This document shows positions 2,049 through 41,000 of a stretch of DNA of 44,384 bases, piece by piece. The DNA is from a virus. The notes under the pieces were generated by a model, which ran no database searches, had not been told where the DNA came from, and saw only the letters and a list, made by a program, of their open reading frames with translations. The DNA lies in IMG/VR virus record IMGVR_UViG_3300045988_049142, positions 1 through 44,384 of that record. One strand, given 5' to 3'. A program made the position numbers and the translations under genes. How positions within the stretch are numbered: the first letter of the stretch is position 1; the number at the start of each line of letters is the position of its first letter.

Positions 2049-3365
2049 CTAACGCGTGGTTACAAAAAATGCGCCATTGTTGTCGGCGTCAATGCGCTTG
2101 ATGGTGCGAGTCCAAAATTCTTTTTTTTCGATCCGCGAGAGCACTGGATACTGTGCGATGGCCTCATGCAAGCTGGCTATGTCTGGTGGATCTGGAGTCT
2201 CAACTTGCGCGGCGTGGAGTTGCTCCTGCAATTTGTCATAGTCGGCGCGATAGGTTGGCATATCAATCATCTCTGCGAGGTACAGCTCTTTCAGCCGATC
2301 AAGCTTGCGCAAGATCTTGGCCGGGGCAATCCGAGACTTTCTCTCGCGCCCTTTTTTGGTTGCAGAGTAGGCCGTTTTGACGATATGCTCCAGCTCCTCG
2401 AGCAGGTATATTTCGAGTTCCGATTCGCGGACCCGTTTGGTATGTGGGCAAGCCGTAATATCAAGCATGTGGGAGCGGCAACGATAATAAGTGTAAACTT
2501 TCTTGACTGTCTCGGACTGCATCGATCGGCCACATTCGCGGCAATAAATCAGCCCAGAGAACAAATATATGTGAGGGGTTTCGACTCCGCTGCATCGCTG
2601 TGCTTGCTTCGCGATGATCTCCTGCGCCAAGTCGAAGTCCTCTTTGGATACAAGCGCATGGATCCGATTAGGTATACCGTGTACCTCTCCGATGTAGAGA
2701 CGGTTCCGGAGTGCGCGATTAAACGTGTTGTACACGGCATCAATGCCCCACTGATCCATCATATATCTACGCGTAGCGTTGACGCTGCGCGTTTGGATAT
2801 AATGCGTAAACATTGCTTGCACGGCGGGGGCGTCTTTCGTCTGGACGTAATCCCCATCCTTGACCATCAGCCCGATAGGAGCCTTGGAGCTGATGGGTAC
2901 ACCCTTGGCTCTTCGGCCATCGTTTACAAAGCGAATCCGCTCACTGGTTCTGTCGGCCTCATCCTGCGCGACGGAGAGCATGATGTTGACCTTTAGCCGT
3001 CCTGCGGCGGTCTGGGTCTCATAGTTCTCCTCGGTGGCGCACCACGTCACACCGGCTTTTTCGAGGACGGGCTGGACGGCGTAATAGTCCGCGACATTTC
3101 TAAACCAGCGGTCGAGTTTGATAAAATAAATGGTGTCGATTTTACCGGCCTCGCAGTCCTCCAACAAGCGTAGGAGCGCCGGTCGCTTTTTGTAAGGCTT
3201 GCGGGCGGAGATCCCCGCGTCCTCGTAGATGCCCACGACCTCAAGGCCGTGGGCTTTGGCGTAGGCAAGGAGTCGCGCTTTTTGCTCCGCGAGGGAGTAT
3301 CCATGGCGGGCTTGCTCCTCGCTGGAGACGCGTACATAGAGCGCGGCGCGTATTTGCTTTGGCAT
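2049..3365 (-). CDS. int: Large serine recombinase (phage integrase)
   Basis: 438 aa. N-terminal resolvase-type catalytic domain (AALYVRVSSEEQ..., DRWFRN), recombinase domain, Cys-rich zinc ribbon (CRECG...CRSH..C) and a C-terminal coiled coil. Confidence 0.9.
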   Translation of the reverse strand: MPKQIRAALYVRVSSEEQARHGYSLAEQKARLLAYAKAHGLEVVGIYEDAGISARKPYKKRPALLRLLEDCEAGKIDTIYFIKLDRWFRNVADYYAVQPVLEKAGVTWCATEENYETQTAAGRLKVNIMLSVAQDEADRTSERIRFVNDGRRAKGVPISSKAPIGLMVKDGDYVQTKDAPAVQAMFTHYIQTRSVNATRRYMMDQWGIDAVYNTFNRALRNRLYIGEVHGIPNRIHALVSKEDFDLAQEIIAKQAQRCSGVETPHIYLFSGLIYCRECGRSMQSETVKKVYTYYRCRSHMLDITACPHTKRVRESELEIYLLEELEHIVKTAYSATKKGRERKSRIAPAKILRKLDRLKELYLAEMIDMPTYRADYDKLQEQLHAAQVETPDPPDIASLHEAIAQYPVLSRIEKKEFWTRTIKRIDADNNGAFFVTTR

Positions 3366-3368
3366 GGG

Positions 3369-3776
3369 TTACCTCCTTATAAATCCGATGCCCCCGCAGA
3401 GTACGTCGAGCGTTATTCCATAAACCAGCACGACCAAGGCCAGCAAAAACATGGCGAGGATGATCTTTTTCTTGCTGGAGATGGATCGCTCCAGCATCGC
3501 GCATTTCTCCTCGCCGAATTGGATTTGCTGGAGCAGTGCGTTGCGCTCTGACTCCGGGATAGGCTCATCTGCGGGGTTGATCATAAAGTATCGATTAAGC
3601 GATACGCCGAGCACGGCACAAATGGGGCCAGCCGTATATACAGATGGGGATTTGGATCCCGATGCAAAAAAGTTTGCAACGGTTGACATGGGGATACCTG
3701 ACTGCTCGGCGATGTCTGCGTTGGTCATGCCCTTCTCGTGGCGCGCACGGCGGCATAGCTCCTGCAGGCTATCCAT
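3369..3776 (-). CDS. XRE-family HTH regulator with C-terminal transmembrane anchor
   Basis: Start moved to the ATG at 3776 (RBS AAGGAGATGG). HTH is MTNADIAEQSGIPMSTVANFF; C-terminal hydrophobic stretch is IILAMFLLALVVLVYGITLDVL. Its stop is 1 nt from the int start, so the two are co-transcribed. Confidence 0.8.
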   Translation of the reverse strand: MDSLQELCRRARHEKGMTNADIAEQSGIPMSTVANFFASGSKSPSVYTAGPICAVLGVSLNRYFMINPADEPIPESERNALLQQIQFGEEKCAMLERSISSKKKIILAMFLLALVVLVYGITLDVLCGGIGFIRR

Positions 3777-4644: not shown

Positions 4645-4693
4645 CAGCGATCGCTTCAGCCATTGCGCCCATAAACGTGCGGTCGTCAGTCAG
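4638..4693. repeat. 56-bp perfect direct repeat, copy A (partner 9247-9302)
   Basis: ggcttttcagcgatcgcttcagccattgcgcccataaacgtgcggtcgtcagtcag, compared by eye in both places. Confidence 0.9.
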
Positions 4694-4699
4694 CATCAT
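4638..4699 (-). pseudogene. 5' remnant (first ~20 codons) of the 63-aa gene found intact at 9117-9308
   Basis: MMLTDDRTFMGAMAEAIAEK.. is encoded by a 56-bp stretch identical to 9247-9302. After that the frame runs into the terminator hairpin. Confidence 0.7.
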
Positions 4700-5588
4700 T
4701 CCGCCCTCCTAAAAGATCCATCTGCCCGCTGATAATGCCATCCTCCATCCACCAGTGCCACCATGACATGATATCTCCCTTTGCGGCCTGCTTTGGGTGC
4801 TTATCAAGATAGTGCTGCAGCGCCCGCATATACGCATCCTGATATTTCGGCCAACGCGCGAACTCGCGGGATCTGGACGCGCCGCCCATCGGGCAGCCTA
4901 CGCACCCCACGCGGTTAAATCCCATGTCGTAGCAGGGGTTATAAGCAAGGTTCTCGCCCCGGATAAACTCCCACACGTCGGTATTTGTCCAGTGGATGAT
5001 CGGGTTTACGATCGTGCTGCCCCGCACTTTGCACGCAGAAATAAATTTGTCATCATGCTCGATAGGGCTGCGACGCACGTCATCCTCAAACAGTTCAGCC
5101 GCATTTTCTGCATTGATTCTGTAACTGTCCGCCTTGGTCTTTCCGCGCGTCTCAAGCTCCCCTCGAGACGCGCGCTGCGAACTCTCATCGGCGCGAACGC
5201 CAGTAGCGATAGCTCGGTTTGCCCCGCCCGTCTCCTTGAGCACCGCGCAGCAAAATCGCCGCAACCTTGTCGGCAAGCCTTTATCGCCGATCAGCTTCCA
5301 CATGCTCGTCCGCTCGCCCTTGTACGTCGGCATGTTTACATAGCACTTCACGCCAGTCAGCTCCAACTCGTGCATCTGCTGGCGCACATACCGCACGGTT
5401 TCCGGCGCATCCGCCGTCGTGTGCGAGTGCTGTACCTCGTAAGGGATTCCCGCGCGCCTTGCAAGCTCCAGCAGCACAAGGCTGTCTTTGCCGCCGGAAT
5501 TGCAGATAAGCAGAGTCTGCTTGTAGTAGTGCAGGCTCATTCGGCTGCCGAGCTGCAAAAGGTTGATTGCCTGCTGTTCTTTATCCAT
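4686..5588 (-). CDS. Phosphoadenosine-phosphosulfate (PAPS) reductase-family PP-loop protein
   Basis: 300 aa, PP-loop motif NSGGKDS, C-terminal Cys cluster CVGCP, RBS GAAGGGAG. Confidence 0.8.
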   Translation of the reverse strand: MDKEQQAINLLQLGSRMSLHYYKQTLLICNSGGKDSLVLLELARRAGIPYEVQHSHTTADAPETVRYVRQQMHELELTGVKCYVNMPTYKGERTSMWKLIGDKGLPTRLRRFCCAVLKETGGANRAIATGVRADESSQRASRGELETRGKTKADSYRINAENAAELFEDDVRRSPIEHDDKFISACKVRGSTIVNPIIHWTNTDVWEFIRGENLAYNPCYDMGFNRVGCVGCPMGGASRSREFARWPKYQDAYMRALQHYLDKHPKQAAKGDIMSWWHWWMEDGIISGQMDLLGGRNDAD

Positions 5589-5657: not shown

Positions 5658-7514
5658 TCATTTCTCCCCAAACCACTTTTTCGTCACCGCAATGGGAAAC
5701 GGCTCGATTTCGCTTGCCCACCGCGCCGTGCCTTTGCCGTGTATGCGCTCCCAGATCAGCGGGAAACCTGCGATGCCGTCAAACAAGCTCCCCAGCGTCG
5801 CGCCCTCCGGCAGATACCGCGCCATGCGCCGCAGCATCCAGTCCCAGAAGGGCAGGGCGATGGAGTTGCCCAGTGCCTTGTACCGTGGGCTGTCCGCGTC
5901 CTTGTGCTTCTTTCCCTTTTCGTCCGTCCACTCGCCGATATCCGTCCAGTGATCGGGGAATCCTTGCAGCCGCTCGCACTCCATCGGCGTCAGGCGGCGC
6001 ACGACCATGTTCTGCCGGACTGTATTATTCAAGTTCAGGCTTTGCCCGCCGCTTTCTTTCGCTTGAAGCGTGCCGTTTACCTCTCCGCCCTCTCGGAAAT
6101 TGCGGCAGTCTACGCTTGCGACATACGCTGCCATATCTGCGCGGTATGGGTCGTTTCCTTTTTCCCTTAGAGATGGGGATATTTCGCTCGACACTACCAG
6201 CATATCGTTGTATGCGTCCTGCCCGTTGTAGCTCCCAGCATGAGCGCCGGGGGAAAGCGTACCCGTCACATCTTGGTATGTAAGCGGCACTTGATTGCCG
6301 CCTGTTCCCATTCGTGCCTGCAGGCTTGGTACCTGCTCCCCGTACTCGCGGATGACGTCGCAGGCGTGTGTCATGTCCAGTGCCACCACTGGGGCAACCA
6401 CAGCTGGCTTATTCCCGCCGCACTCGGCGTTCAGTGTAGGGGACAGCTCCTCCTGATAGCCGATGCTCCGTGCCTGTTCACTGTTGCCCAGTTTAAACCC
6501 AGCACACAATACGCTGTCCCGCGCCATGCCGCCGTTCTCGTTGGCATTCAGACTGTGCCATACGCCATCCTGATCGTACACCCTTGCGCTCTGCGCATCC
6601 CAAGGATTCATGCACATTACTCCGTGGCGGTCACCAGCGGTCAGCGTGGGGGACGGGTCACCCTCTTTGCCGATTCCAAGACCATTGCCGCTGCCATCGT
6701 GGTTGCGACTTTCGCCACCGCCCTGCCATCTGGTGGCTTTGTCGTTGATGGGGATAGCCACAAATATGGCAGGATTGTTCACACCACCGCCAACACCGCC
6801 TTGCAGTGTGGGGGATTTTCCGTTTATGTTAAAAATACGCTTGCTTTGGCAATCCCAAGCCGTCATGCAGTCCCCGACTGCCGGATTAAAACCGCTTTCA
6901 GTAGCTTCGGCAAATCCTTCCCCCGCCGTTCCGCTCTCCGCAAGATGCCCAGACACGCTTTCGCGCTCAAATTGTATTTGGGCAGCGGATTCACCTCCAA
7001 AATCTGCGACAACCGAGATTCTTCGGCGACGCTGTGGGGTCCCCAGACGGATAACATCTCCTGTACGGCTGTCTCGGATGGTTTTTCCCCAGTCCTTAGC
7101 GTCGTGAGTTCGCCAAGCGATAGACCACCCATCACCGTCAATGGCTCCTGCTTTTGTCCATTTCCACTTTTCCGGCAGTCCAGATAAAGAAAATCCTGGT
7201 TCTGCGATACGCGCAATTTCTTCCAGCACGGCTGCGAAGTCTTTTCCTCTATTGCTGCTGAATGCTCCGACAACGTTCTCCCAAACGAGAAACCGAGGTC
7301 GAACCATGTCACCTGTCCGTCCATTCCGTTTGTCCTCCGCTCTCATTTCTTTTACGATGCGCACCTGCTCCATAAACAGGCCGCTTCGCGCTCCCGCCAA
7401 ACCGGCGCGTTTCCCGGCGATGGATAGATCCTGACACGGGCTGCCGCCCGTCACCACCCACACCGGCTCGATCTCCGCACCGTTTATCTTGCAGACGTCT
7501 CCCAAATGAACCAT
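5658..7514 (-). CDS. DNA (cytosine-5)-methyltransferase, circularly permuted, with an expanded target-recognition region
   Basis: 618 aa. Motif III HLGDV, IV GGSPCQDLS, VI LVWENV, VIII QRRRR, IX RRLTPMECERLQGFPD, X GNSIALP. Motifs I (LGSLFDGIAGF) and II (WASEIE) follow at the extreme C-terminus. Confidence 0.85.
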   Translation of the reverse strand: MVHLGDVCKINGAEIEPVWVVTGGSPCQDLSIAGKRAGLAGARSGLFMEQVRIVKEMRAEDKRNGRTGDMVRPRFLVWENVVGAFSSNRGKDFAAVLEEIARIAEPGFSLSGLPEKWKWTKAGAIDGDGWSIAWRTHDAKDWGKTIRDSRTGDVIRLGTPQRRRRISVVADFGGESAAQIQFERESVSGHLAESGTAGEGFAEATESGFNPAVGDCMTAWDCQSKRIFNINGKSPTLQGGVGGGVNNPAIFVAIPINDKATRWQGGGESRNHDGSGNGLGIGKEGDPSPTLTAGDRHGVMCMNPWDAQSARVYDQDGVWHSLNANENGGMARDSVLCAGFKLGNSEQARSIGYQEELSPTLNAECGGNKPAVVAPVVALDMTHACDVIREYGEQVPSLQARMGTGGNQVPLTYQDVTGTLSPGAHAGSYNGQDAYNDMLVVSSEISPSLREKGNDPYRADMAAYVASVDCRNFREGGEVNGTLQAKESGGQSLNLNNTVRQNMVVRRLTPMECERLQGFPDHWTDIGEWTDEKGKKHKDADSPRYKALGNSIALPFWDWMLRRMARYLPEGATLGSLFDGIAGFPLIWERIHGKGTARWASEIEPFPIAVTKKWFGEK

Positions 7515-7517
7515 GTC

Positions 7518-7655
7518 TCAACCTCCAAACACCACGCCGCACTCGTCCTTCGGCACCATCGCCACGTTGCCCATAGTATCTTGCGTGCCGTGCAACTTGC
7601 CCAGCATGTAAGCCTGTTTCGGGTTATTGGACAGCGGTCTCCCGTTAACTTTCAT
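7518..7655 (-). CDS. Possible 45-aa protein
   Basis: An internal ATG of the 7518-8003 ORF with GGAAGGG upstream. Its stop is 1 nt before the MTase start. The start choice is uncertain. Confidence 0.3.
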   Translation of the reverse strand: MKVNGRPLSNNPKQAYMLGKLHGTQDTMGNVAMVPKDECGVVFGG

Positions 7656-8009: not shown

Positions 8010-8507
8010 TCAGCCCTCCAATTTCATGTAGCAGCCCCAAAAGGTCTGCGATCTCTTCCCACTGTGATGACCAAATAAAGTCCGCTGTCCTATCGCTTTC
8101 CAAACTTCGGCGGCAGAGATCTGTGTTTCCGCCCACTTGAAAATCAATACGCCATCGGGTTTAAGCACACGCATACACTCTTCGAAACCGTCGTGGAGCA
8201 TTTTGGGCCAGTTGTTGTCGAGTCGGCCATACTTTTTGGCCAACCATGCGTTTTTTCCAACCTGACGTAGGTGGGGCGGATCCCAGACAACAAGAGCAAA
8301 CGAATTGTCATCAAACGGAAGATCCGTAAAATCGCATTGGATATCGGGGGCAATAATGCAAGATCTCTCGGGCTGACCACTTTCCGATTTCCAAACACCA
8401 TACAGTTCTTCAGCCCGTTTGTCTGCATAAATTGCAGCGGGGTGATTTTTGTTAAACCATATCGTCCGCGATCCGCAGGTTACGTCAAGGATTTTCTTTT
8501 TGCACAT
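8010..8507 (-). CDS. Small SAM-dependent DNA methyltransferase (DPPH motif; N6-adenine or N4-cytosine type)
   Basis: Start at ATG 8507 (TAATG overlap with the upstream gene). Motif I ILDVTCGS, motif IV VVWDPPH. Confidence 0.65.
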   Translation of the reverse strand: MCKKKILDVTCGSRTIWFNKNHPAAIYADKRAEELYGVWKSESGQPERSCIIAPDIQCDFTDLPFDDNSFALVVWDPPHLRQVGKNAWLAKKYGRLDNNWPKMLHDGFEECMRVLKPDGVLIFKWAETQISAAEVWKAIGQRTLFGHHSGKRSQTFWGCYMKLEG

Positions 8508-8755
8508 TATTCCGCCTCCCTCAACATATCTTTGATCTCGTCGATATTTGCCCGGATAATATCCATCGTCACGTCGCTCTGGATGTGGTGTGCAAACACG
8601 GCCTTGTCCGTTGCGTCTGCCCCATAGTACCCCGTAAAGACGTCGCCGTCGGGCGATGTTGCGGCGATGCACAGGCACACGGGGTCAATCCCCGCGATGA
8701 CCTGCAGCGATTCTTCCAGCCATGCCGCATACGGCTGTTTCGTGATGTCGTTCAT
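8507..8755 (-). CDS. Hypothetical protein (82 aa)
   Basis: ATG at 8755 overlaps the stop of the upstream gene. Coupled within the operon. Confidence 0.6.
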   Translation of the reverse strand: MNDITKQPYAAWLEESLQVIAGIDPVCLCIAATSPDGDVFTGYYGADATDKAVFAHHIQSDVTMDIIRANIDEIKDMLREAE

Positions 8756-9116: not shown

Positions 9117-9308
9117 TTATTCCCCCTTCTCCAGCATGTCCGCCGCCGTTCTCAAGTCATCCGGCAGCATAATCGGAACTTCATAGATATTCGCCTCGGC
9201 CCACTCCGCGTATTCGCGCAGCATCGCAATAAGCCCCTCCCGCGTCGGCTTTTCAGCGATCGCTTCAGCCATTGCGCCCATAAACGTGCGGTCGTCAGTC
9301 AGTCCCAT
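9117..9308 (-). CDS. Hypothetical protein (63 aa), the intact copy of the gene truncated at 4638-4699
   Basis: The ORF overlaps the MTase stop. Its N-terminal 20 codons are repeated at 4638-4699. Confidence 0.6.
   Translation of the reverse strand: MGLTDDRTFMGAMAEAIAEKPTREGLIAMLREYAEWAEANIYEVPIMLPDDLRTAADMLEKGE
9247..9302. repeat. 56-bp perfect direct repeat, copy B (partner 4638-4693)
   Basis: See copy A. Confidence 0.9.
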
Positions 9309-10260
9309 CGCCGACTCCCATCATGTCAAACAAGGAGATTCCATCTGTCGCCTGACTGCCAAGTTCTGCGATTCTCTCCGCCTGTGCGCAGTTTTCAGCG
9401 GCAAGCCGGAAATAACTGGCTTTCAGTTCCACGCCAATATGTCTGCGTCCCATCAAAATGGACTGGTATCCGGTGGAGCCAATGCCGTCAAACGGGTCCA
9501 GCACAATGTCGCCGGGGTTGCTCCACAGTTCCACGCACCGCTCGATTACTGGAAGCTGCAACGGGCAGATGTGCCGTTCGTCCTTTTCTTCCTTCGCCGC
9601 TTTGCGGTTGAGTGTGTCACTCTGATTGATGTCCCACCATGTGGGGGATGCGTATTCCTCCCAGATCGGGGACGCTACCTGTTGCCACTTGGATACAGGA
9701 TAAGTGCTATCCGTGTGAGAAACTCTCTCCGGATTGTCCCCAGGCTTGCGGAATGTCACGACATAGTCCGGGATGCCCATCCGGCTCATACAGGAGTCTT
9801 TCTTTATCTGCTTATGCAGCAGCCCCAACGCCTTGGTGCGCTGCATGGCCGTCACGGGATTCTTCCAGATGCATACTTCGCTATGGTAAATAAATCCCAG
9901 CGACTGCATCCAGCGGATCACATCGCCCCGGAAATCCCGGATGCCGATATATCCGTCCCGCTCCTTGCTGGTAGGGAGGTTCATGCAGTGGATGCTTACA
10001 TTCCGCCCCGGCATCATTACGCGATACCATTCGCGCCCTAAGTACATGTACTGTTCGGCGAACTCTTCGTAGCTCCGGCAGTTGCCCATATCCCGATCGC
10101 TGTTGGAGTATGTATACAAACTGGCAAACGGAATAGAGGTCACAGAATAGTGGATGCTGTTGTCGGGGATTCCTTTCAGCACCTCGCAACTGTCTCCGTT
10201 ATAAACCGCATATCTGCGGCCAATGGCCTGGTCTAACACATTCATGCGCTTATCACCCAT
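9295..10260 (-). CDS. DNA methyltransferase, N6/N4 beta-class (motif IV before motif I)
   Basis: 321 aa, motif IV-like TSIPFASLY, motif I VLDPFDGIGSTG. An alternative ATG at 10245 forms an ATGA overlap with the helicase stop. Confidence 0.8.
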   Translation of the reverse strand: MGDKRMNVLDQAIGRRYAVYNGDSCEVLKGIPDNSIHYSVTSIPFASLYTYSNSDRDMGNCRSYEEFAEQYMYLGREWYRVMMPGRNVSIHCMNLPTSKERDGYIGIRDFRGDVIRWMQSLGFIYHSEVCIWKNPVTAMQRTKALGLLHKQIKKDSCMSRMGIPDYVVTFRKPGDNPERVSHTDSTYPVSKWQQVASPIWEEYASPTWWDINQSDTLNRKAAKEEKDERHICPLQLPVIERCVELWSNPGDIVLDPFDGIGSTGYQSILMGRRHIGVELKASYFRLAAENCAQAERIAELGSQATDGISLFDMMGVGDGTD

Positions 10261-33964: not shown

Positions 33965-34993
33965 GTGGCGTTTAGCTACAAAGACTATGAGGAAAGCGAG
34001 CGCGTCAGGGATCTGTACAATCAGCTCCAGCAGACGGACGCACGGAAGCCGGGAGACTGGAGCGGCGGCACATATGGACAGCAAATGCAGGACGCTCTCA
34101 GCAAGCTGCAGAACCGTGAAAAATTTAAGTACGATCTGAACGGAGACGCGCTTTACCAGCAGTACAAAGATCGGTATGTCCAGCAGGGCAAACAGGCCAT
34201 GCAGGATACGATGGGTCAAGCGGCGGCTCTTACGGGCGGCTATGGATCAACATACAGCCAGAGCGCAGGACAGCAGCAGTATAACGCATATCTGCAGAGC
34301 CTGAACGACGTAGTGCCTGAGCTGTACCAAATGGCGCTGGAACGTTATAACGCAGAAGGCGACGATCTCAAGACGCAGTACTCCCTCCTCGCGGATCGTT
34401 ACTCGCAGGAGTACGGCGAGTACCGCGACAAGGCCAGCGACTGGCAGAACCAGCGCGATTACGCCGCAAACCGGTACGACGCAGAGCGCCAGCTCGACTA
34501 TAGCCGATATGGCGACGCGAAGAGCTACGCCTATCAGGACTACAGAGATCGGATCTCGGACGAACAGTGGCAGAAGCAGTACGACGAGAACGTCCGCCAG
34601 TTCAACCAGCAGATGGCAATGGAGCAGGCTCAGCTTGCGGCTCAGAAGGCGGCGGCAAGCAGTTCGAGCCGCAGTGGTTCGTCCAGCTCTCGCAGATCCA
34701 GCAAGAGCTACGACACCCACGGGTACTCGTCCGATCAGATCAAGCAGATCCAGATGGCGGCTGGTCTCACGCAGGACGGCATTTGGGGCGCTCAGACTCA
34801 GGCGGCATATGAGAGCGGCTATAGGCCGATCAACGAGTATACCATCACAAATCGATCCGGTAACGGATGGATCAAGCTTGAAGGCGGAAGCCGATACGGT
34901 GAAACTGAGCTGATTAAGATGCTCCAGAACGGAACTGCGACCGCAACGTGGGACAACAGCAAGAAGACGATCACGTTCCACAAGAAGAAGTAA
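33965..34993 (+). CDS. Tyr/Gln/Asp-rich protein with Ser-rich linker and PG-binding-like C-terminal part
   Basis: 342 aa, GTG start with RBS AAAGGAGGGAG. Linker SSSSRSGSSSSRRSS, then IKQIQMAAGLTQDGIWGAQTQAAY. Confidence 0.65.
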   Translation: MAFSYKDYEESERVRDLYNQLQQTDARKPGDWSGGTYGQQMQDALSKLQNREKFKYDLNGDALYQQYKDRYVQQGKQAMQDTMGQAAALTGGYGSTYSQSAGQQQYNAYLQSLNDVVPELYQMALERYNAEGDDLKTQYSLLADRYSQEYGEYRDKASDWQNQRDYAANRYDAERQLDYSRYGDAKSYAYQDYRDRISDEQWQKQYDENVRQFNQQMAMEQAQLAAQKAAASSSSRSGSSSSRRSSKSYDTHGYSSDQIKQIQMAAGLTQDGIWGAQTQAAYESGYRPINEYTITNRSGNGWIKLEGGSRYGETELIKMLQNGTATATWDNSKKTITFHKKK

Positions 34994-35013
34994 CGCAAGC
35001 GAGGGAGGCAACT

Positions 35014-38000
35014 ATGACCAATAACGATCTGGCGGTGGAGCTGCTGCAGCAGCGCAAGAAGAAGCGCGAAGATCCGCAGTCTGCAACGACGCAGACCAGC
35101 ACGCAGAATATGAGCGGACAGGCCGCTCTTGCGCAGGAGCTTTTGTCTCAGCGGATTCAGGCGCGGAAAGAGCGCGAAGCGACGCAGCCCACCGTCAGCC
35201 TTCCTTCGCAGAGGATTGACCCGGCGAAGGAACGGCAGGAAAGCAATGGCAAGTTCAACGGGTGGAAGTATTTCGGCAACCTCGGAAAGACGCTCCTGAC
35301 CGGCGTTGCAAGCCTTGCACAGACGGGAGCCATGGCCGAGGATGTTGTGACTTCTGCCGTGGATACGATCTTCAAGGGTGCGAACACAAAGGGAAGTGGC
35401 CTCTTCAATGCACTGTATCACGGCCGACCGGATTGGAAGTTCCTCGGCGAGAATGGCCTCGTCGGCATCGAGCAGGAGAAAGCCTATCTCGATCAGGAAC
35501 GAGAGGCTGAAGTCGCCAAAATCAAGGATGACACTTTTGGCGGCAAGGTCGCCAAAAAGGCTGCGTCGTATGGCGGCGATATTGCATACGGAGTCGGATA
35601 CGCGATCCCCATGGCGGCGACTGCGGGAGTTGCGGCGGCACCTATCGTCAACGGCGTAGCGACATCAACGGAGGCGCTTGCAAATCTTGGCGCGTCCGTC
35701 GTGGAAAGTTCCGGTGTGCTGAATGCTCTTGGGAAAGGGTTTCGCGACACGCTAAGATCCAAGGACTACTGGATGGCTTTTACATCCGAAGTCGGCGCAG
35801 ACTATCAGGAGGCGCTTTCCGACGGCGCGAGTACGGGCGAAGCCATGAACTATGCCATCGCCACCAGCCTCCTTAACTCTGTGATCGAGGTCGGCGGCGG
35901 TATCCAGAAGGTACCGGAGAACTTCAGCGTAAAAAATCTCCTGCGCAGCGCCGCAGAGGAAGGCATGGAGGAGATCTGGCAAGGCCCCGTCGGGCGCACG
36001 ATGCAGAACGTCGTTTACGGCGCAAACAACCCAATTGTGTCCACAACGGATGACCGCGCGATCTTTAACCCTGTGACGTCTGCACAGGAGTTTGCGGGCG
36101 GCTTTACGGTCGGCGGTATTCTGTCCGGCGCGCAGATGGCCGCTGGCAAGGCGGCGAACAGCATCTACAGCAAGCAGGTCGAGAAGCAGAGCCAGCGCTA
36201 TGAACAGGCACAGGCGCGCGTGAAAGAGCTGTCGGGGGTCAAGGGGACGTACCAGACCGGGGAGAACGGGAAGACCACTGTCGGCGGGAATGAATCGGCG
36301 ATCAAGTCCGTTGTGAAGGGCGGGCAAATCGAGATGGCAAACGGCGAGGTCGTGTCCCCCGACAAGGTAAAGTTCGCGGATCGGAACACCGCCGATCTCT
36401 ACGAGGGCGCAATTAGCCGCGCGGCGAACGCAGGAGCGGCAAATGTCTTTATCGACTCCTACACCGGAGGCGACGTGAGCCGCTATCTGCTGGGGATGCA
36501 GGAGGCCTACGAGGACGGGCGCGCCGGAGTCGTGACCGAGAAGCGCGGTACGTTTGCCGATGATCTGACGGACGCACAGCGCACGGCGGCGTGGAATCAG
36601 GGCGCGGCTGATGGGCTGCAGTCCTTCCGGTCGGACACCGGCCTCGGTGAGAACGGGAGCGACGCGTGGACGCAGGTACAGCAGAATCAGGCTGTAAAGA
36701 GCAATCCCCGTCTGCGCACGGGCTTTACAGCGATGTACCAGGCTGGCCTAAGCGGCAAGTCGCTGACTGACGTAAAGAGCGATGCGGCGCGTTACATCCC
36801 CCCTTCCGTACAGACGGCGGCGTATCAGGCCGGTCTTGCCGATGCGGCAAGTAACTTGGCGCGGGAAAAGGCTGGCGTGAAGTTGGTTACGAAGTCCAAC
36901 GAGGCCGGCCTTGTCGACAACGATTACAGCAAAAAGCTCGCAAACAACGATACAGGAACTGCACGTGTGCTGGGATCTCTCGCAAGCGACATGGGCGTTC
37001 GAATCGAGATCGTGCCGCAGGTGCAGGGCGGCGCGGCGAACGGCAAGTACGTCAAGGGTACGAATACCGTCCTGCTTGCGGCTGATGCGGAAAACCCGCT
37101 TTCCTTTGTCGCGGCGCATGAGGTAACGCACAGGATGCAGGATGCCGCGCCGACAGAGTACCGCGCATATCGCGATGCCGTGATGGAGTACCAGTCGAGC
37201 GAACTGGGCGATGACACTACCGCAAGCATGGTGGAGCGCTATCGCGAGGCAAGCCGAGAGGCTGGTGTTACGCTGACGCAGGAAGAGGCCATGGACGAGA
37301 TCGCGGCAGACTTTACCGCGAAGATGATTAACGACACGGATCTGTTCGGGCGGTTTGCCGACAAAAACCGCTCTGTGGCCGGCAAGTTGCTCGATGGGCT
37401 GAAGTCGTTTATTTCCCGCGTGAAGACCCTCTTCACCGGCAAGGCACGGGACAAGGCTGCGCAGAAAGCCTATGGCAAGAACTTCGCGGATCTGCAGAAG
37501 GTCGCAGACCTTTGGCAGACGGCGTATGACAAGGCGGCGGAGACGATCCGCGAATCGACGAATGCAGTAACTGCAAATGCTGATGAATCTGCGAAGCTGC
37601 AGATTCGCCGTAAGTATTGGAAGCCGCAACTTCGCAGTGACGAATGGGCATTGCTGAACCGAAAACTCGACGAGGAAATCGGGAGCAGTGAACAGTATCT
37701 TGACGAATCAACGAAATGGCTGTATGCTGATGAAAAAGGCGTACAGGTGTTCGCTCTGTACGGGATCGGCGACGGCACGGAAGCTACGCCGCTGTATGCG
37801 GTCGGTGGGAAGCAGGCTGATGCATGCAGTGTGGCCGTGGCTGAATATATTGAGAGGAGAGAAAAATATGACAGAAATGGAGGATCTGCTGATTCGTGGG
37901 TTGAGCTGCTTTGGAGTAAGAAAGGGAGCCGGAGCGGAAATCTTCCTCAGGCTCAAGGGCCAGCCGGAGACGCAGGAGCAGTTTATGGACTACATGGCGG

Positions 38001-41000
38001 ATCACAGAACGGCAACGTCAGAGGAACTTCTGGCCGAAGCGCGCCGGATCAGCGGGAAGTAAAGGAAAAGTTCTCCCTGCGAGCACCGGTAGAACGGACA
38101 AAAGATCTCGTGGCCGTCCACAACCTGACGGAACAGAACCTGCGGGATGCGTTCTATTTGGGTGGGCTGCCGATGCCAAGTATCGCAGTCGTCAAGGCGG
38201 CACAGGGACACAGCATGTACGGGCCGATCTCCATCGTGTTCGGACGCGAGAGCATCGACCCGCAGACGGACAGCCGGAACAAGATTTACGGCGGCGACGC
38301 GTATACGCCGACGGCCCCGGCGGTGGAATATCCAGTGAACTACGACCGGATGCGCGCCGTGGAAAAGCGGCTCGCGGGGCTGAGCGAGAAGGTCGCGGGC
38401 GGCGTATTCCGCAACGACAGCGCATTGCAGCGCGCAGGCGTTGGCGAAGAGAGCGGCATGAGCGCGCCGGAGCTGGCGGACAAGCTCGCGCGGGACGACA
38501 GTATTCGCGCGGCGTATCTGGCCGATCAGGGGAAAACGCTGGAGCCGGTCATGCAGGCAAAGGAGTTCAACCGATACGGCAATGACTCACTATCGAAGCT
38601 TGTGCAGAAAATCGGCGTGCAAAAGCTGGCGGACATCGAGGCGAGCATGGAAGCGGGCGACTATCAGCCGGTGCAGGAGATCGAGGACACGGTGCGCCAG
38701 ATTATCCGCGACAGCTACGAAGAGCAGCACCGCAGATTCCTCGACCGGAAACCGGAGCTGAAGGAGAAGCGGATCAACTACTTTATGGAGAACAATGTCC
38801 ACACATACACGGTGGAGAATTTCGTCCGAAACGCATGGGAATACTATCAGGACCAGGGCGCGACGACGAGCGAGATCGACCGGTGGGCGACCAGCGACAA
38901 GCTCCATGAAGCGGCGAGCACCGAGGATGTGAAAGCGTGGCTGCTGCCGCAGCTGGAAGGCGTACTGGGCGAGCCGGGGATCTACAACGGATCGGAACGG
39001 TTCGACAAGTCCGGCAGCAAGCGGAGCTTTTCGCAGTTGCACTGGGAGTATACGCTGGAGAACATCGTGCGCGCCATGACCGAGACGCAGGCAGAGCGCG
39101 GCGGGCAGACGTTTGGCGCGTCGGCGAAGTCCATGCAGGCGGTCAGCACGGAGGACTTCCAGAGCATCGACGCGGTGAAGGCTGCGAGCGACAGGCTCGG
39201 CAAGGTGGACACAGAGCAGTACAAGGCCGACGTGGACGCAGTAGAAAAGCGCATCGAGCAGGCCACGCGGGCGGTCATGCGCGAGAACAAGGCGCACTCG
39301 GACAACCAGTTCGATGAGATGCAGATCATCGGCGACGTGATGATGCAGGCCGCGCAGGGTAAGCAGACAGAAGCAGCCATCCGGCGGGCGTTCTCGAAGG
39401 AAGGGTACTCCATCAGCAAGAGCACGGCTGCGAGAATCCGGGAGATGTTCCGCGCGGCGGCGGAGCTTCCGACGGGTTACTTCGAAGCGAAACCGCAAAG
39501 AGCCGTAGGGTTTAATGAAGTGCTTGCGGCAGTAATTCCGGATAATTCCAGTGCGGAAATTCGCCAATCTTTATCGGATGCTGGCGTTCGCGTTATCGAG
39601 TATCCTGCGGGAGACGAAACAGGTAGGTTGAATGCGGTAAACAGTGTGGACAACGCGAGATTTCAGCTCAAGTCGCAGACGCAGATCGAGACGGAAATGC
39701 GCGACATCAAGAAGGAACGCGACCGGCTCAAGACGCGCGTGAAATCGCTTGAGCGTCAGGTGGCACGCTGGAAAGCGGAAACCAAGCCCTCTATGCCGAG
39801 TTTCCGCGAGGGAGATCTGAAGAAACTCGGGAATCGGCTTATCAACGACTTCGACAGCTCGACGAAGTACAGCGAGATCAAGACGGATATGGAGAACCTC
39901 GGCAAGGCTCTTCTATCGCAGGATGTCCCTGACACAGATCTCCACGCTTATGCAGAGTATGTGGCAGAAAAGATCATCCAGAATTCTCGTGTGCTTGAGG
40001 AGGGCGGCGAGGACTTGCTGGAAATCCAAAAACACCTCAAGTCCGTCAAGCTGGCGTATACGGATGACGGATCCATCCCGGATTTTCCCGAATGGAAGAA
40101 GGCACACCGTTACATTAAGTTCGCGAAGGACGGCGGGCTTCCGGTCGACGTGGCATATCATGAGCTGACAGAGATGTTTGGCGGCGGCTATTTTCCTGAA
40201 AGCATCACGAATCCAGCAGATCAGCTTACGCGCATGGGCGAGATCTTGGAGGATATCGACAACATTTGGTCGAATCCGTATGACGAGTATCATGACATCG
40301 CAGTAACTGCCCTTGGGAACTCCTTGATTGAGAGCATGATCAGCGATGATGTCCGGCAGACCAGACCGACCTATGCAGATCGGAAGGAAAAGGAGATCGC
40401 ACACCTGAAGGATCTACTCAGCAAGACGCGGGCTGGTCGCGACGAGAAGATCAAGCAGATGCGGACGGCGTACGCCGAACGAACCAAATCCGGGGCAGAA
40501 AAGCGCAAGGCCAGGGAGATGCGCGCACGGATCGCAAGGCACACCGACGCGCTGTCTCAGAAGTTGCTCCATCCAACCGACAAACAGCATATCCCCGAAC
40601 AGCTGCGTACTCCGGTTGCCGCACTCCTCCGCGTCATTAACACGGAAAGCTCCATGAGCTACGATGAAAGCGGAAAACTCCGCAAGGGAACCACGGGATC
40701 TCCGACAAAGAGAACACAAGAGGCAATCCGCCTCCGCGAGGCGTATGACGAAATTCTCTCCAGCGATCCCAATTTTGTGGTTGATCCGGCTTTGTTCGGC
40801 GAGGGCGGACAAAGTGGTTTCATCGATCAGCTTGTCGAGCTGGGGAGCCAGCGGATCGGCGACATGAACAGCGAGCAGCTTAACGTTGTCTGGAAAGCAA
40901 TCAAGGGCATAGAAACGACCGTATCCAGCTACGACAAGGCACTTTCGAGTGGGAAGTATATATTTATCTCCCAGTGGGCAAATGATCTCAGGAGCGGCGT

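Follow-up and report, generated by a model that had tools for sequence, protein, structure and literature searches.

A predicted orphan C5-cytosine methyltransferase of gut phages, permuted between motifs II and III as previously seen only in engineered enzymes

Permuted C5-methyltransferases and the phage enzyme

Circularly permuted C5-cytosine DNA methyltransferases (C5-MTases) are known both from the laboratory and from nature. In the engineering study of Slaska-Kiss et al. (2018; PMC5944983), enzymes with a new N-terminus between motifs II and III are denoted 'Type B', and cp62M.MpeI and cp58M.SssI were by far the most active engineered permutants; in the accompanying REBASE search, each of the 27 natural permuted C5-MTases had its break in the variable region, and Type B was reported to be absent from nature. 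The authors further expected Type B enzymes to bind the cofactor S-adenosylmethionine more weakly. A preprint (bioRxiv 10.1101/2023.12.13.571470, December 2025 version) recognizes just two topologies among the 5-methylcytosine (m5C) enzymes, the canonical class C and the zeta class F (M2.Eco31I type). Here we analyze an open reading frame (ORF) at positions 5658-7514 of the IMG/VR virus record IMGVR_UViG_3300045988_049142 (44,384 nucleotides, the whole of which is referred to below as the window). The encoded protein appears to be a natural Type B permuted orphan phage C5-MTase that belongs to a very large gut-phage family and displays a motif order previously seen only in engineered enzymes. 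An earlier note on this DNA had stated that the known natural permutants are broken elsewhere, in agreement with the 2018 survey. A literature search that most subscription journals lay outside of turned up neither a natural II|III permutant nor a gene nested within an MTase gene; there is a small but not negligible chance that such a permutant has already been reported somewhere.

The engineered Type B enzymes share with the window's MTase the break between motifs II and III, the joining of the native termini directly or by a few residues, and the C-terminal location of motifs I-II. However, they were built in the laboratory from short, monospecific CG or GGCC enzymes, whereas the phage family is natural and widespread and has a modular variable region of 340 aa. 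The zeta, class F or 'Type H' enzymes (M.BssHII, M.Alw26I, M2.Eco31I, M.Esp3I, M2.BsaI) are natural C5-MTase permutants as well, presumably products of duplication and truncation, but they break in the variable region, with IX-X preceding I-VIII and both domains contiguous, whereas in the phage MTase the large domain itself is cut between strands beta2 and beta3. The N-terminus of the protein encoded at 5658-7514 does not lie in the variable region; a rarer sister form within the family (P0245) has the order IX-X-I...VIII. Multispecific phage C5-MTases (SPR, phi3T, rho11s and H2 type) contain several contiguous target-recognition domains (TRDs) in a single variable region, with a separate recognition sequence for each. 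The orphan phage enzymes M.SPRI (K02124) and M.Rho11sI (X05242) are similar to the permuted MTase in having long variable regions (215 and 279 aa, respectively) with cores of the form 'VYxSxGxSPTLTT', but retain the canonical order, contain 3-4 TRDs with experimentally assigned specificities, and are only 20-29% identical to the permuted MTase in the core. Plant DRM2, which was recovered by both sequence and fold searches, is another naturally rearranged C5-MTase, but with the order VI-X followed by I-V, and is eukaryotic, RNA-directed and devoid of a TRD array. Split C5-MTases of the M.AquI alpha/beta type consist of two polypeptides divided in the variable region; the gene at 5658-7514 is a single 618-aa ORF, and the two-ORF forms found in the related loci L077 and L080 are derivatives of 1-nt indels. 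Finally, canonical relatives of the phage MTase (L092, P0283, P0364, P0366) share with it the core sequence, the linker after motif VIII, the TRD modules and, as checked in L092, a nested +1-frame ORF, but have motifs I-II at the N-terminus and end after the helix behind motif X.

Motif order and the junction

The coordinates of the ORF given in the earlier note are correct and all the peptides quoted there are present; the strand, which was not specified, is minus. The features of the gene are as follows.

5658..7514, minus: permuted C5-cytosine DNA methyltransferase ORF, 618 aa plus stop, ATG at 7514
7522..7526, minus: Shine-Dalgarno (SD) sequence GGAGG, 7 nt 5' of the MTase ATG
7491..7514, minus: new N-terminus at motif III, MVHLGDVC, residues 1-8
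7422..7448, minus: motif IV GGSPCQDLS, residues 23-31, with catalytic Cys27, invariant in 93 diverse homologues
7266..7286, minus: motif VI VWENVVG, ENV at residues 79-81
7002..7037, minus: motif VIII PQRRRRISVVAD, QRRRR at residues 161-165
6009..7001, minus: variable region, residues 172-502, a linker followed by the modular target-recognition region
5952..6005, minus: motif IX VVRRLTPMECERLQGFPD, with RRLTPMECERLQGFPD at residues 506-521
5847..5882, minus: motif X YKALGNSIALPF, GNSIALP at residues 549-555; next comes the helix that is C-terminal in the canonical enzyme
5661..5819, minus: permuted tail, residues 566-618, opening with a joint of ~7 residues, YLPEGAT
5760-5798, minus: motif I TLGSLFDGIAGFP in the tail, with TLGSLFDGIAGF at residues 573-584 and LFDGIAGF at 577-584
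5682-5726, minus: motif II ARWASEIEPFPIAVT in the tail, with WASEIE at residues 599-604 and SEIE at 601-604

Thus ordered, the motifs run III-IV-VI-VIII-variable-IX-X-I-II, and the canonical linear order from I to X is not found. The hallmarks of C5-MTases (PF00145/TIGR00675 dcm superfamily) are all readily identifiable, including the Pro-Cys of motif IV, the ENV of motif VI and the QxRxR of motif VIII, and motifs IX (RxxTxxE) and X (GNS) come after the variable region, as they do in C5-MTases. The features that bind S-adenosylmethionine (AdoMet), namely, FxGxG of motif I and the acidic residue of motif II, are present as well but at the C-terminus, the chain closing with WASEIEPFPIAVTKKWFGEK (residues 599-618) and a stop. 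The match to the Pfam profile PF00145 (E 2e-25) begins at residue 3 of the protein and position 46 of 324 in the profile, and residue 59 of M.HhaI pairs with residue 5; because both alignments begin there, the MTase starts at motif III and motifs I-II are missing from its N-terminus.

When searched alone against Pfam, the tail yields only a weak match (E 0.14) that covers profile positions 4-37. With the tail moved to the front, the score of the whole protein increases from 90.3 to 104.7 bits, and profile positions 4-131 are covered by one contiguous match. An artificial 152-aa query, in which the tail was followed by the head, was used to look for relatives with the canonical order. Dozens of proteins cover this query across the junction, with 99% coverage and 64-73% identity; proteins that span it end to end are therefore canonical-order relatives. 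Full-length examples are P0283, P0364, P0366 and the 519-aa gene of the isolate Ruminiclostridium papyrosolvens C7 (L092). We consider these junction-spanning relatives decisive evidence for the permutation. Residue 1 of the MTase pairs with the canonical 'M-x-H-L-GD', 5-6 residues past motif II; the chain opens between motifs II and III, with the native termini joined, exactly the Type B arrangement. The central claims of the earlier note are borne out by these comparisons: the profile search and the alignments of relatives both place III/IV first and I-II at the C-terminus and agree on the II|III break, and the usual sequence that joining the C-terminus to the N-terminus was said to recreate is the one over which the canonical relatives align without interruption.

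Predicted structure and selective constraint

A model of the protein was obtained with AlphaFold (AF2) from a diverse alignment of 93 sequences. The mean predicted local distance difference test score (pLDDT) is 62 and the predicted template modelling score is 0.59; residues 1-185 and 500-618 are mostly at pLDDT 85-98, with lower values in loops, and the variable region is below 50. In the tail, with pLDDT 90-97, a strand (574-577), a helix (583-592), a second strand (597-601) and a second helix (605-615) are predicted, which corresponds to the expected beta1-alphaA-beta2-alphaB cofactor unit. The top Foldseek matches in the PDB are M.HhaI and M.HaeIII (probability 1.0, root-mean-square deviation 1.6-3.1 A, 167-180 columns), and the plant DRM enzymes, which are naturally rearranged, are also among the matches. 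The Foldseek alignment is sequential and covers only the MTase head, for which the AF2 core and these matches agree on the class I MTase fold of the large domain. The earlier note had proposed AF2 modelling and superposition on M.HhaI as a check; the tail is indeed confidently predicted as beta-alpha-beta-alpha, and the Foldseek match to M.HhaI is limited to the head. The confidence of the model and the conservation of the tail suggest that it docks as strand 1 of the cofactor sheet.

Under the mechanism proposed here, the chain would start at strand beta3 and build the catalytic half of the large domain (motifs IV, VI and VIII), pass through the long, modular target-recognition region and return via motifs IX and X and the C-terminal helix, with the beta1-alphaA-beta2 AdoMet-binding unit (motifs I and II) supplied last. 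The folded enzyme should equal the canonical one because the native termini of C5-MTases lie close together.

The conservation pattern is compatible with an active enzyme. In the alignment of the 93 sequences (44-97% identity), the invariant residues include C27, Q28, E79, Q161, R162, R163, R165, R506, E512, G549 and N550 and, in the tail, L577, F578, G580, F584, S601 and E602. Among 66 distinct related loci, the nucleotide diversity of the tail at codon positions 1, 2 and 3 is 0.16, 0.15 and 0.46, respectively; the motif I block, with an amino-acid diversity of 0.07 and a position-3 diversity of 0.51, is as conserved as motifs IV and X. Judging by these codon patterns, the tail is under ordinary strong purifying selection.

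Topologies in the family and the origin of the permutation

The 120 closest database homologues (62-97% identity) show the same order in all cases where they are intact. For a count of topologies, the 149 best representatives of clusters at 50% identity were used: ~130 end in IX-X-I(-II), ~9 are canonical and three have the order IX-X-I-II-III-IV-VI-VIII, so that three topologies coexist in the clade. Of 337 stretches matched by pattern in IMG/VR, 336 encode relatives; these lie mostly on contigs of 20-45 kb, and the IX-X-I-II order is present in the 80 loci examined. Bacterial matches come mainly from metagenome-assembled genomes (MAGs) of Clostridia. In public records the family is labelled merely as 'cytosine specific methyltransferase'.

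The origin of the permuted form can be traced to some extent in the canonical relatives. P0364 ends with '...AEALREGTA' and starts with 'MATLGSLFDG', and the MTase of the window reads '...RYLPEGATLGSLFDG'; its joint '...EGA|TLGSLF' equals the canonical C-terminus '...EGTA' followed by the N-terminus 'MATLGSLF'. At the other end, canonical relatives read '...VTKxxFPxM-x-H-L-GDITKI', with a Met exactly at the position where the permuted genes start. On this comparison, two canonical copies would have fused head-to-tail in frame, motifs I-II of the first copy and everything after motif II of the second would then have been lost, and the Met already present inside the gene would have become the new start codon. 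A tandem duplication trimmed at both ends, which had been suggested from the layout of the gene, is thus supported by the P0364 joint and the internal Met. No relics of the lost half-copies were seen when the translations of the flanking ORFs were read by eye, no dedicated search having been run.

Several members of the family deviate from the common architecture. P0245 (L083 1637-3259, L084, L085) is a stand-alone 540-aa gene with the order TRD-IX-X-I-II-III-IV-VI-VIII that comes from three independent samples; the IX-X-first order is also found in P0290 and P0335. In genes of this type, the I-II tail runs in frame into III-IV, and the topology could have arisen from the same tandem fusion by a different trimming. 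P0127, P0179 and P0187 are short permuted derivatives (198-261 aa) that have motifs IV-VIII and the I-II tail but neither the TRD region nor motif IX; motif X is retained in P0179 and missing in P0127 and P0187, and P0127 is found on 4 contigs of up to 28 kb. These may be remnants or, alternatively, catalytic domains that work with a separate partner. Some family MTases contain an intein (Pfam Hint_2, LAGLIDADG_3, Intein_splicing), namely, P0053 (927 aa), P0100 (971 aa) and L015 (3001-5781).

Variable region

The distance between motifs VIII and IX is 340 aa, close to the ~330 aa of the earlier note. The five elements of the S/T-P-S/T-L type noticed there are all present (residues 233, 286, 356, 394 and 445), and three further, similar cores were identified (residues 318, 417 and 480). 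Up to eight cores of the form Y-x3-G-x-S-P-T-L-T/Q/N, similar to the TRD cores of SPR and rho11s, can thus be delineated.

6795-6818, 6633-6659, 6540-6563, 6423-6449, 6312-6335, 6246-6266, 6162-6182 and 6057-6077, minus: eight TRD-like cores

Four of the elements can be paired with cores of SPR/rho11s.

SPR/rho11s TRD core VYNSSGLSPTITTNKGEG; variable-region element IFNINGKSPTLQGGVGGG
SPR/rho11s TRD core VYDSNGIATTLTSQSVGG; variable-region element VYDQDGVWHSLNANENGG
SPR/rho11s TRD core VYSPDGVSPTLTTMGEGH; variable-region element GYQEELSPTLNAECGGN
SPR/rho11s TRD core GEPAFTVNTIDRHGV; variable-region element GDPSPTLTAGDRHGV

The other elements are QVPSLQAR, TGTLSPG, ISPSLRE and NGTLQAK. BLAST aligns residues 171-299 of the MTase with residues 317-431 of rho11s (E 9e-5). 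Among the 73 close homologues, the variable region falls into blocks of 15-70 aa, each either wholly present or wholly missing, with occupancy from 0.01 to 1.0, and some of the blocks stand in a different order in other members.

A probable nested gene in the +1 frame

The MTase gene overlaps, on the same strand, a long ORF in the +1 frame that is not mentioned in the earlier note, with the following features.

6863..7324, minus: nested +1-frame ORF, 153 aa plus stop, over MTase residues 64-217
6866-7018, minus: best-conserved part of the nested ORF, SRLSQILE...KYNLSAKACLGILRRAERRGKDLP
7333..7338, minus: SD sequence GGAGGA, 8 nt 5' of the nested ORF ATG

Wherever this ORF could be located, in ~78 related loci with MTase identities as low as 50%, it is open. 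Its start is fixed just past two stop codons, and an SD-like site with an ATG or GTG is conserved in 29 of 32 distinct contexts. Outside of the nested ORF, codon position 3 of the MTase is the most variable (0.35-0.5), whereas at MTase residues ~180-205 the pattern is inverted (position 3, 0.00-0.16; position 1, 0.24-0.33) and shows the periodicity of the +1 frame. For the 36 codons that follow motif VIII, the amino-acid identity of sequence pairs averages 0.815 in the +1 frame and 0.669 in the MTase frame, with the higher value in the +1 frame in 97% of the pairs; synonymous/non-synonymous differences from the consensus number 403/440 in the +1 frame versus 204/639 in the MTase frame. Homologues of the product number 973, almost all of them stand-alone 'hypothetical proteins' of 150-190 aa, and the ORF persists at ~50% identity; the conserved end reads 'LSQILE..P.KY.L(S/T).KAC.GILRRAERRGK.LP..LK'. 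The canonical-order MTase gene of R. papyrosolvens C7 also contains the nested ORF (L092 400-837), and the ORF remains intact in a MAG beside a decayed MTase (L081 4001-4552). On these comparisons, the predicted nested protein is older than the permutation and under purifying selection. As a guess, it might be a partner or a regulator of the MTase. Its conserved end ('LSQILE...KYxLS...GILRRAxRRGKxLP') may resemble the element behind motif VIII in ordinary, Dcm-type C5-MTases, but the PDB profile search, with Dcm, HhaI and HaeIII included, gave no support to a homology.

Frame swaps and a putative recoding site in related loci

Both frames are open over ~150 codons, and single indels therefore give chimeric ORFs rather than truncations, which accounts for the database proteins of the types 'head + +1 peptide' and '+1 peptide + TRD...II' as well as for L077, L080 and the Faecalibacterium phage FP_Toutatis. 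In L077 and L080, compared with L006, 1-nt indels in a G-rich run (…GGCGGC…/RGGCDGGG; locus ~3640-3660) swap the MTase and +1 frames, resulting in a head ORF of 215-220 aa and an ORF of 557-601 aa that opens with the nested protein and runs on into TRD-IX-X-I-II. A designed alpha/beta split was considered for the two-ORF relatives (P0243, L077, L080) and rejected: a single indel in the G-rich run separates L077 from single-ORF relatives, and neither frame is interrupted there. In P0139 and P0164, a canonical-order head is fused to the +1 peptide. FP_Toutatis (MG711466, 6463-7874; L082 3001-4412) is the closest cultured phage relative and shares both the permuted tail and the +1-frame peptide, but its gene is in two frames: ORF1 consists of III-IV-VI fused to the +1 peptide and the overlapping ORF2 of VIII-TRD-IX-X-I-II. 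The two products are annotated as two MTases (AUV56727/AUV56728), and the annotation of the record does not mention the permutation.

In 26 or 27 of the 80 related loci, motif IV is encoded as GGT GGT TCA CCT TGT-TAGA-CAG GAT, that is, with a 4-nt insertion, TAGA, right after the catalytic Cys codon that creates an in-frame TAG; the MTase of the window lacks this insertion.

Locus ~3060-3090: TAGA in L005, L009, L014, L019, L027, L029, L031, L034, L042, L045-L047, L049-L053, L059-L062, L065, L066, L069, L078 and L080

The stretch across the site reads GGTGGTTCACCTTGTTAGACAGGA, and the 24 nt around TAGA do not vary between two subclades with different upstream codons. These loci contain an upstream ORF of 27 codons with a strong SD sequence, a GTG start and normal motifs III-IV, and skipping the 4 nt restores 530-628 intact codons. 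The pattern is suggestive of programmed recoding and not of decay; a +1 shift at UGU-UAG-A, for example, would yield ...SPC-R-QDLS....

Alternative explanations

The permuted MTase is likely to be functional, and the reading that we favor overall, a functional orphan phage C5-MTase permuted between motifs II and III, is about as likely to be correct. Some observations weigh against it: AF2 with the shallow alignment of the 73 close homologues gave a mean pLDDT of only 33; motif I reads GIAGF in place of the usual GIGGF, both variants being common in the family; and FP_Toutatis, the only cultured phage relative, may lack an intact enzyme because its gene lies in two frames. If the gene were an inactive remnant (pseudogene) left by recombination between tandem MTase copies, it would be in keeping with a family that is clearly prone to recombination, with deletion derivatives that lack TRD, IX or X (P0127, P0179, P0187), frame-swapped forms (L077, L080, Toutatis) and a decayed copy (L081). 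This explanation is, however, highly improbable given that ~130 clusters at 50% identity retain the permuted layout intact, that all catalytic and cofactor residues are invariant, with signs of purifying selection in both the core and the tail, that the ORF has a strong SD sequence and start, and that engineered enzymes of the same topology have wild-type-like activity. The weak Pfam match of the tail on its own might instead suggest that the I-II segment is a functionless leftover of the second copy outside of the fold, leaving a protein that does not bind AdoMet or does not methylate. Yet the protein holds no other motif I or II, the motif I block is as conserved as the catalytic motif, the predicted tail has the expected beta-alpha-beta-alpha fold with high confidence, and the joint reads as if canonical relatives had been fused directly, C-terminus to N-terminus, which makes a functionless tail just as hard to credit as a pseudogene.

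For the variable region, a multi-TRD array, as proposed in the earlier note, appears to be a reasonable interpretation, somewhat more probable than not and better supported than its rival, by which the region would not consist of independent TRDs but would be one large domain, with a single or very relaxed specificity, or in part a non-TRD insert. A self-BLAST of the variable region revealed no internal repeats, phmmer against the PDB detected no similarity to solved TRDs (only a spurious xylosidase match was obtained), AF2 confidence is below 50, and a hidden Markov model of five Bacillus-phage TRD cores beat all 200 shuffles but by few bits, too weakly to count modules. All this would fit a single domain, and multispecificity is accordingly an inference from short motifs. 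Conversely, the up to eight SPR/rho11s-like cores, with 'GDPSPTLTAGDRHGV' resembling 'GEPAFTVNTIDRHGV', the BLAST match to the TRD region of rho11s and the presence, absence and reordering among homologues of 15-70-aa blocks with one core per block favor the array, and the single-domain rival is the less likely of the two. The multi-TRD reading is supported at the level of motifs and modularity, but not by repeats or solved structures. As for the nested ORF, it probably is a translated gene. Its openness and conservation could be a by-product of high GC content, of constraints in the MTase frame or of a nucleic-acid element: the window is 58% GC with many long spurious ORFs, synonymous-codon shuffles often keep the +1 frame open for 70-130 codons (median p 0.1 per locus, moderately significant), and nothing in Pfam, PHROGs, NCBIfam, PADLOC or the PDB profile search matches the product. 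The shuffle test was superseded by the codon-position and two-frame identity tests, and the prevalence of the +1 frame after motif VIII, the three-base periodicity of its variability, the conserved SD sequence and start, and the retention of the ORF at ~50% identity, in a canonical cultured isolate and beside a decayed MTase render the non-gene explanation rather improbable. A more ambitious joint reading, in which the nested protein is translated and works with the MTase as a TRD-completing subunit or regulator, the MTase has at least five exchangeable specificities, and the TAGA relatives depend on a programmed +1 frameshift, has to be regarded as doubtful.

Genomic context

At ~44 kb, the window appears to be a complete phage genome, with the MTase gene located in a minus-strand early module next to the following genes.

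4686-5588, minus: PAPS-reductase-like gene, directly downstream of the MTase
8010-8510, minus: small MTase-like gene, upstream
9295-10260, minus: N6/N4 MTase, upstream

No nuclease was recognized among the five neighboring ORFs scanned, and the best PADLOC model for the MTase is 'orphan methyltransferase', aligned from profile position 48. The PAPS-reductase neighbor recurs beside the homologous locus in L081. By ORF layout, the plus-strand half looks like the late/structural module; this late region includes a single ORF of 2928 aa (34948-43734, plus).

Implications

The favored permuted MTase would probably methylate phage DNA at several sequences via exchangeable TRD modules and, together with the two neighboring amino-MTases, would shield the phage from host restriction. 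A putative modular TRD array of this kind bears on the simultaneous evasion of many restriction systems by gut phages and, being longer than those of SPR and rho11s, could yield new m5C specificities for epigenetic tools. Two further features of the family are unusual: a same-strand nested gene of 150 codons that appears to be under purifying selection is uncommon for a double-stranded DNA phage, and there is a candidate recoding site at the catalytic codon. The canonical, II|III-permuted and variable-region-permuted members, along with the joint and Met signatures, make up a rare living series within one clade that bears on the duplication-and-truncation model of circular permutation. Above all, the natural II|III permutant supplies, on a large scale in human-gut phages, the example that the 2018 permutation study called missing; nature uses this break, and the idea that evolution tolerates only domain-preserving permutations would therefore need revising.

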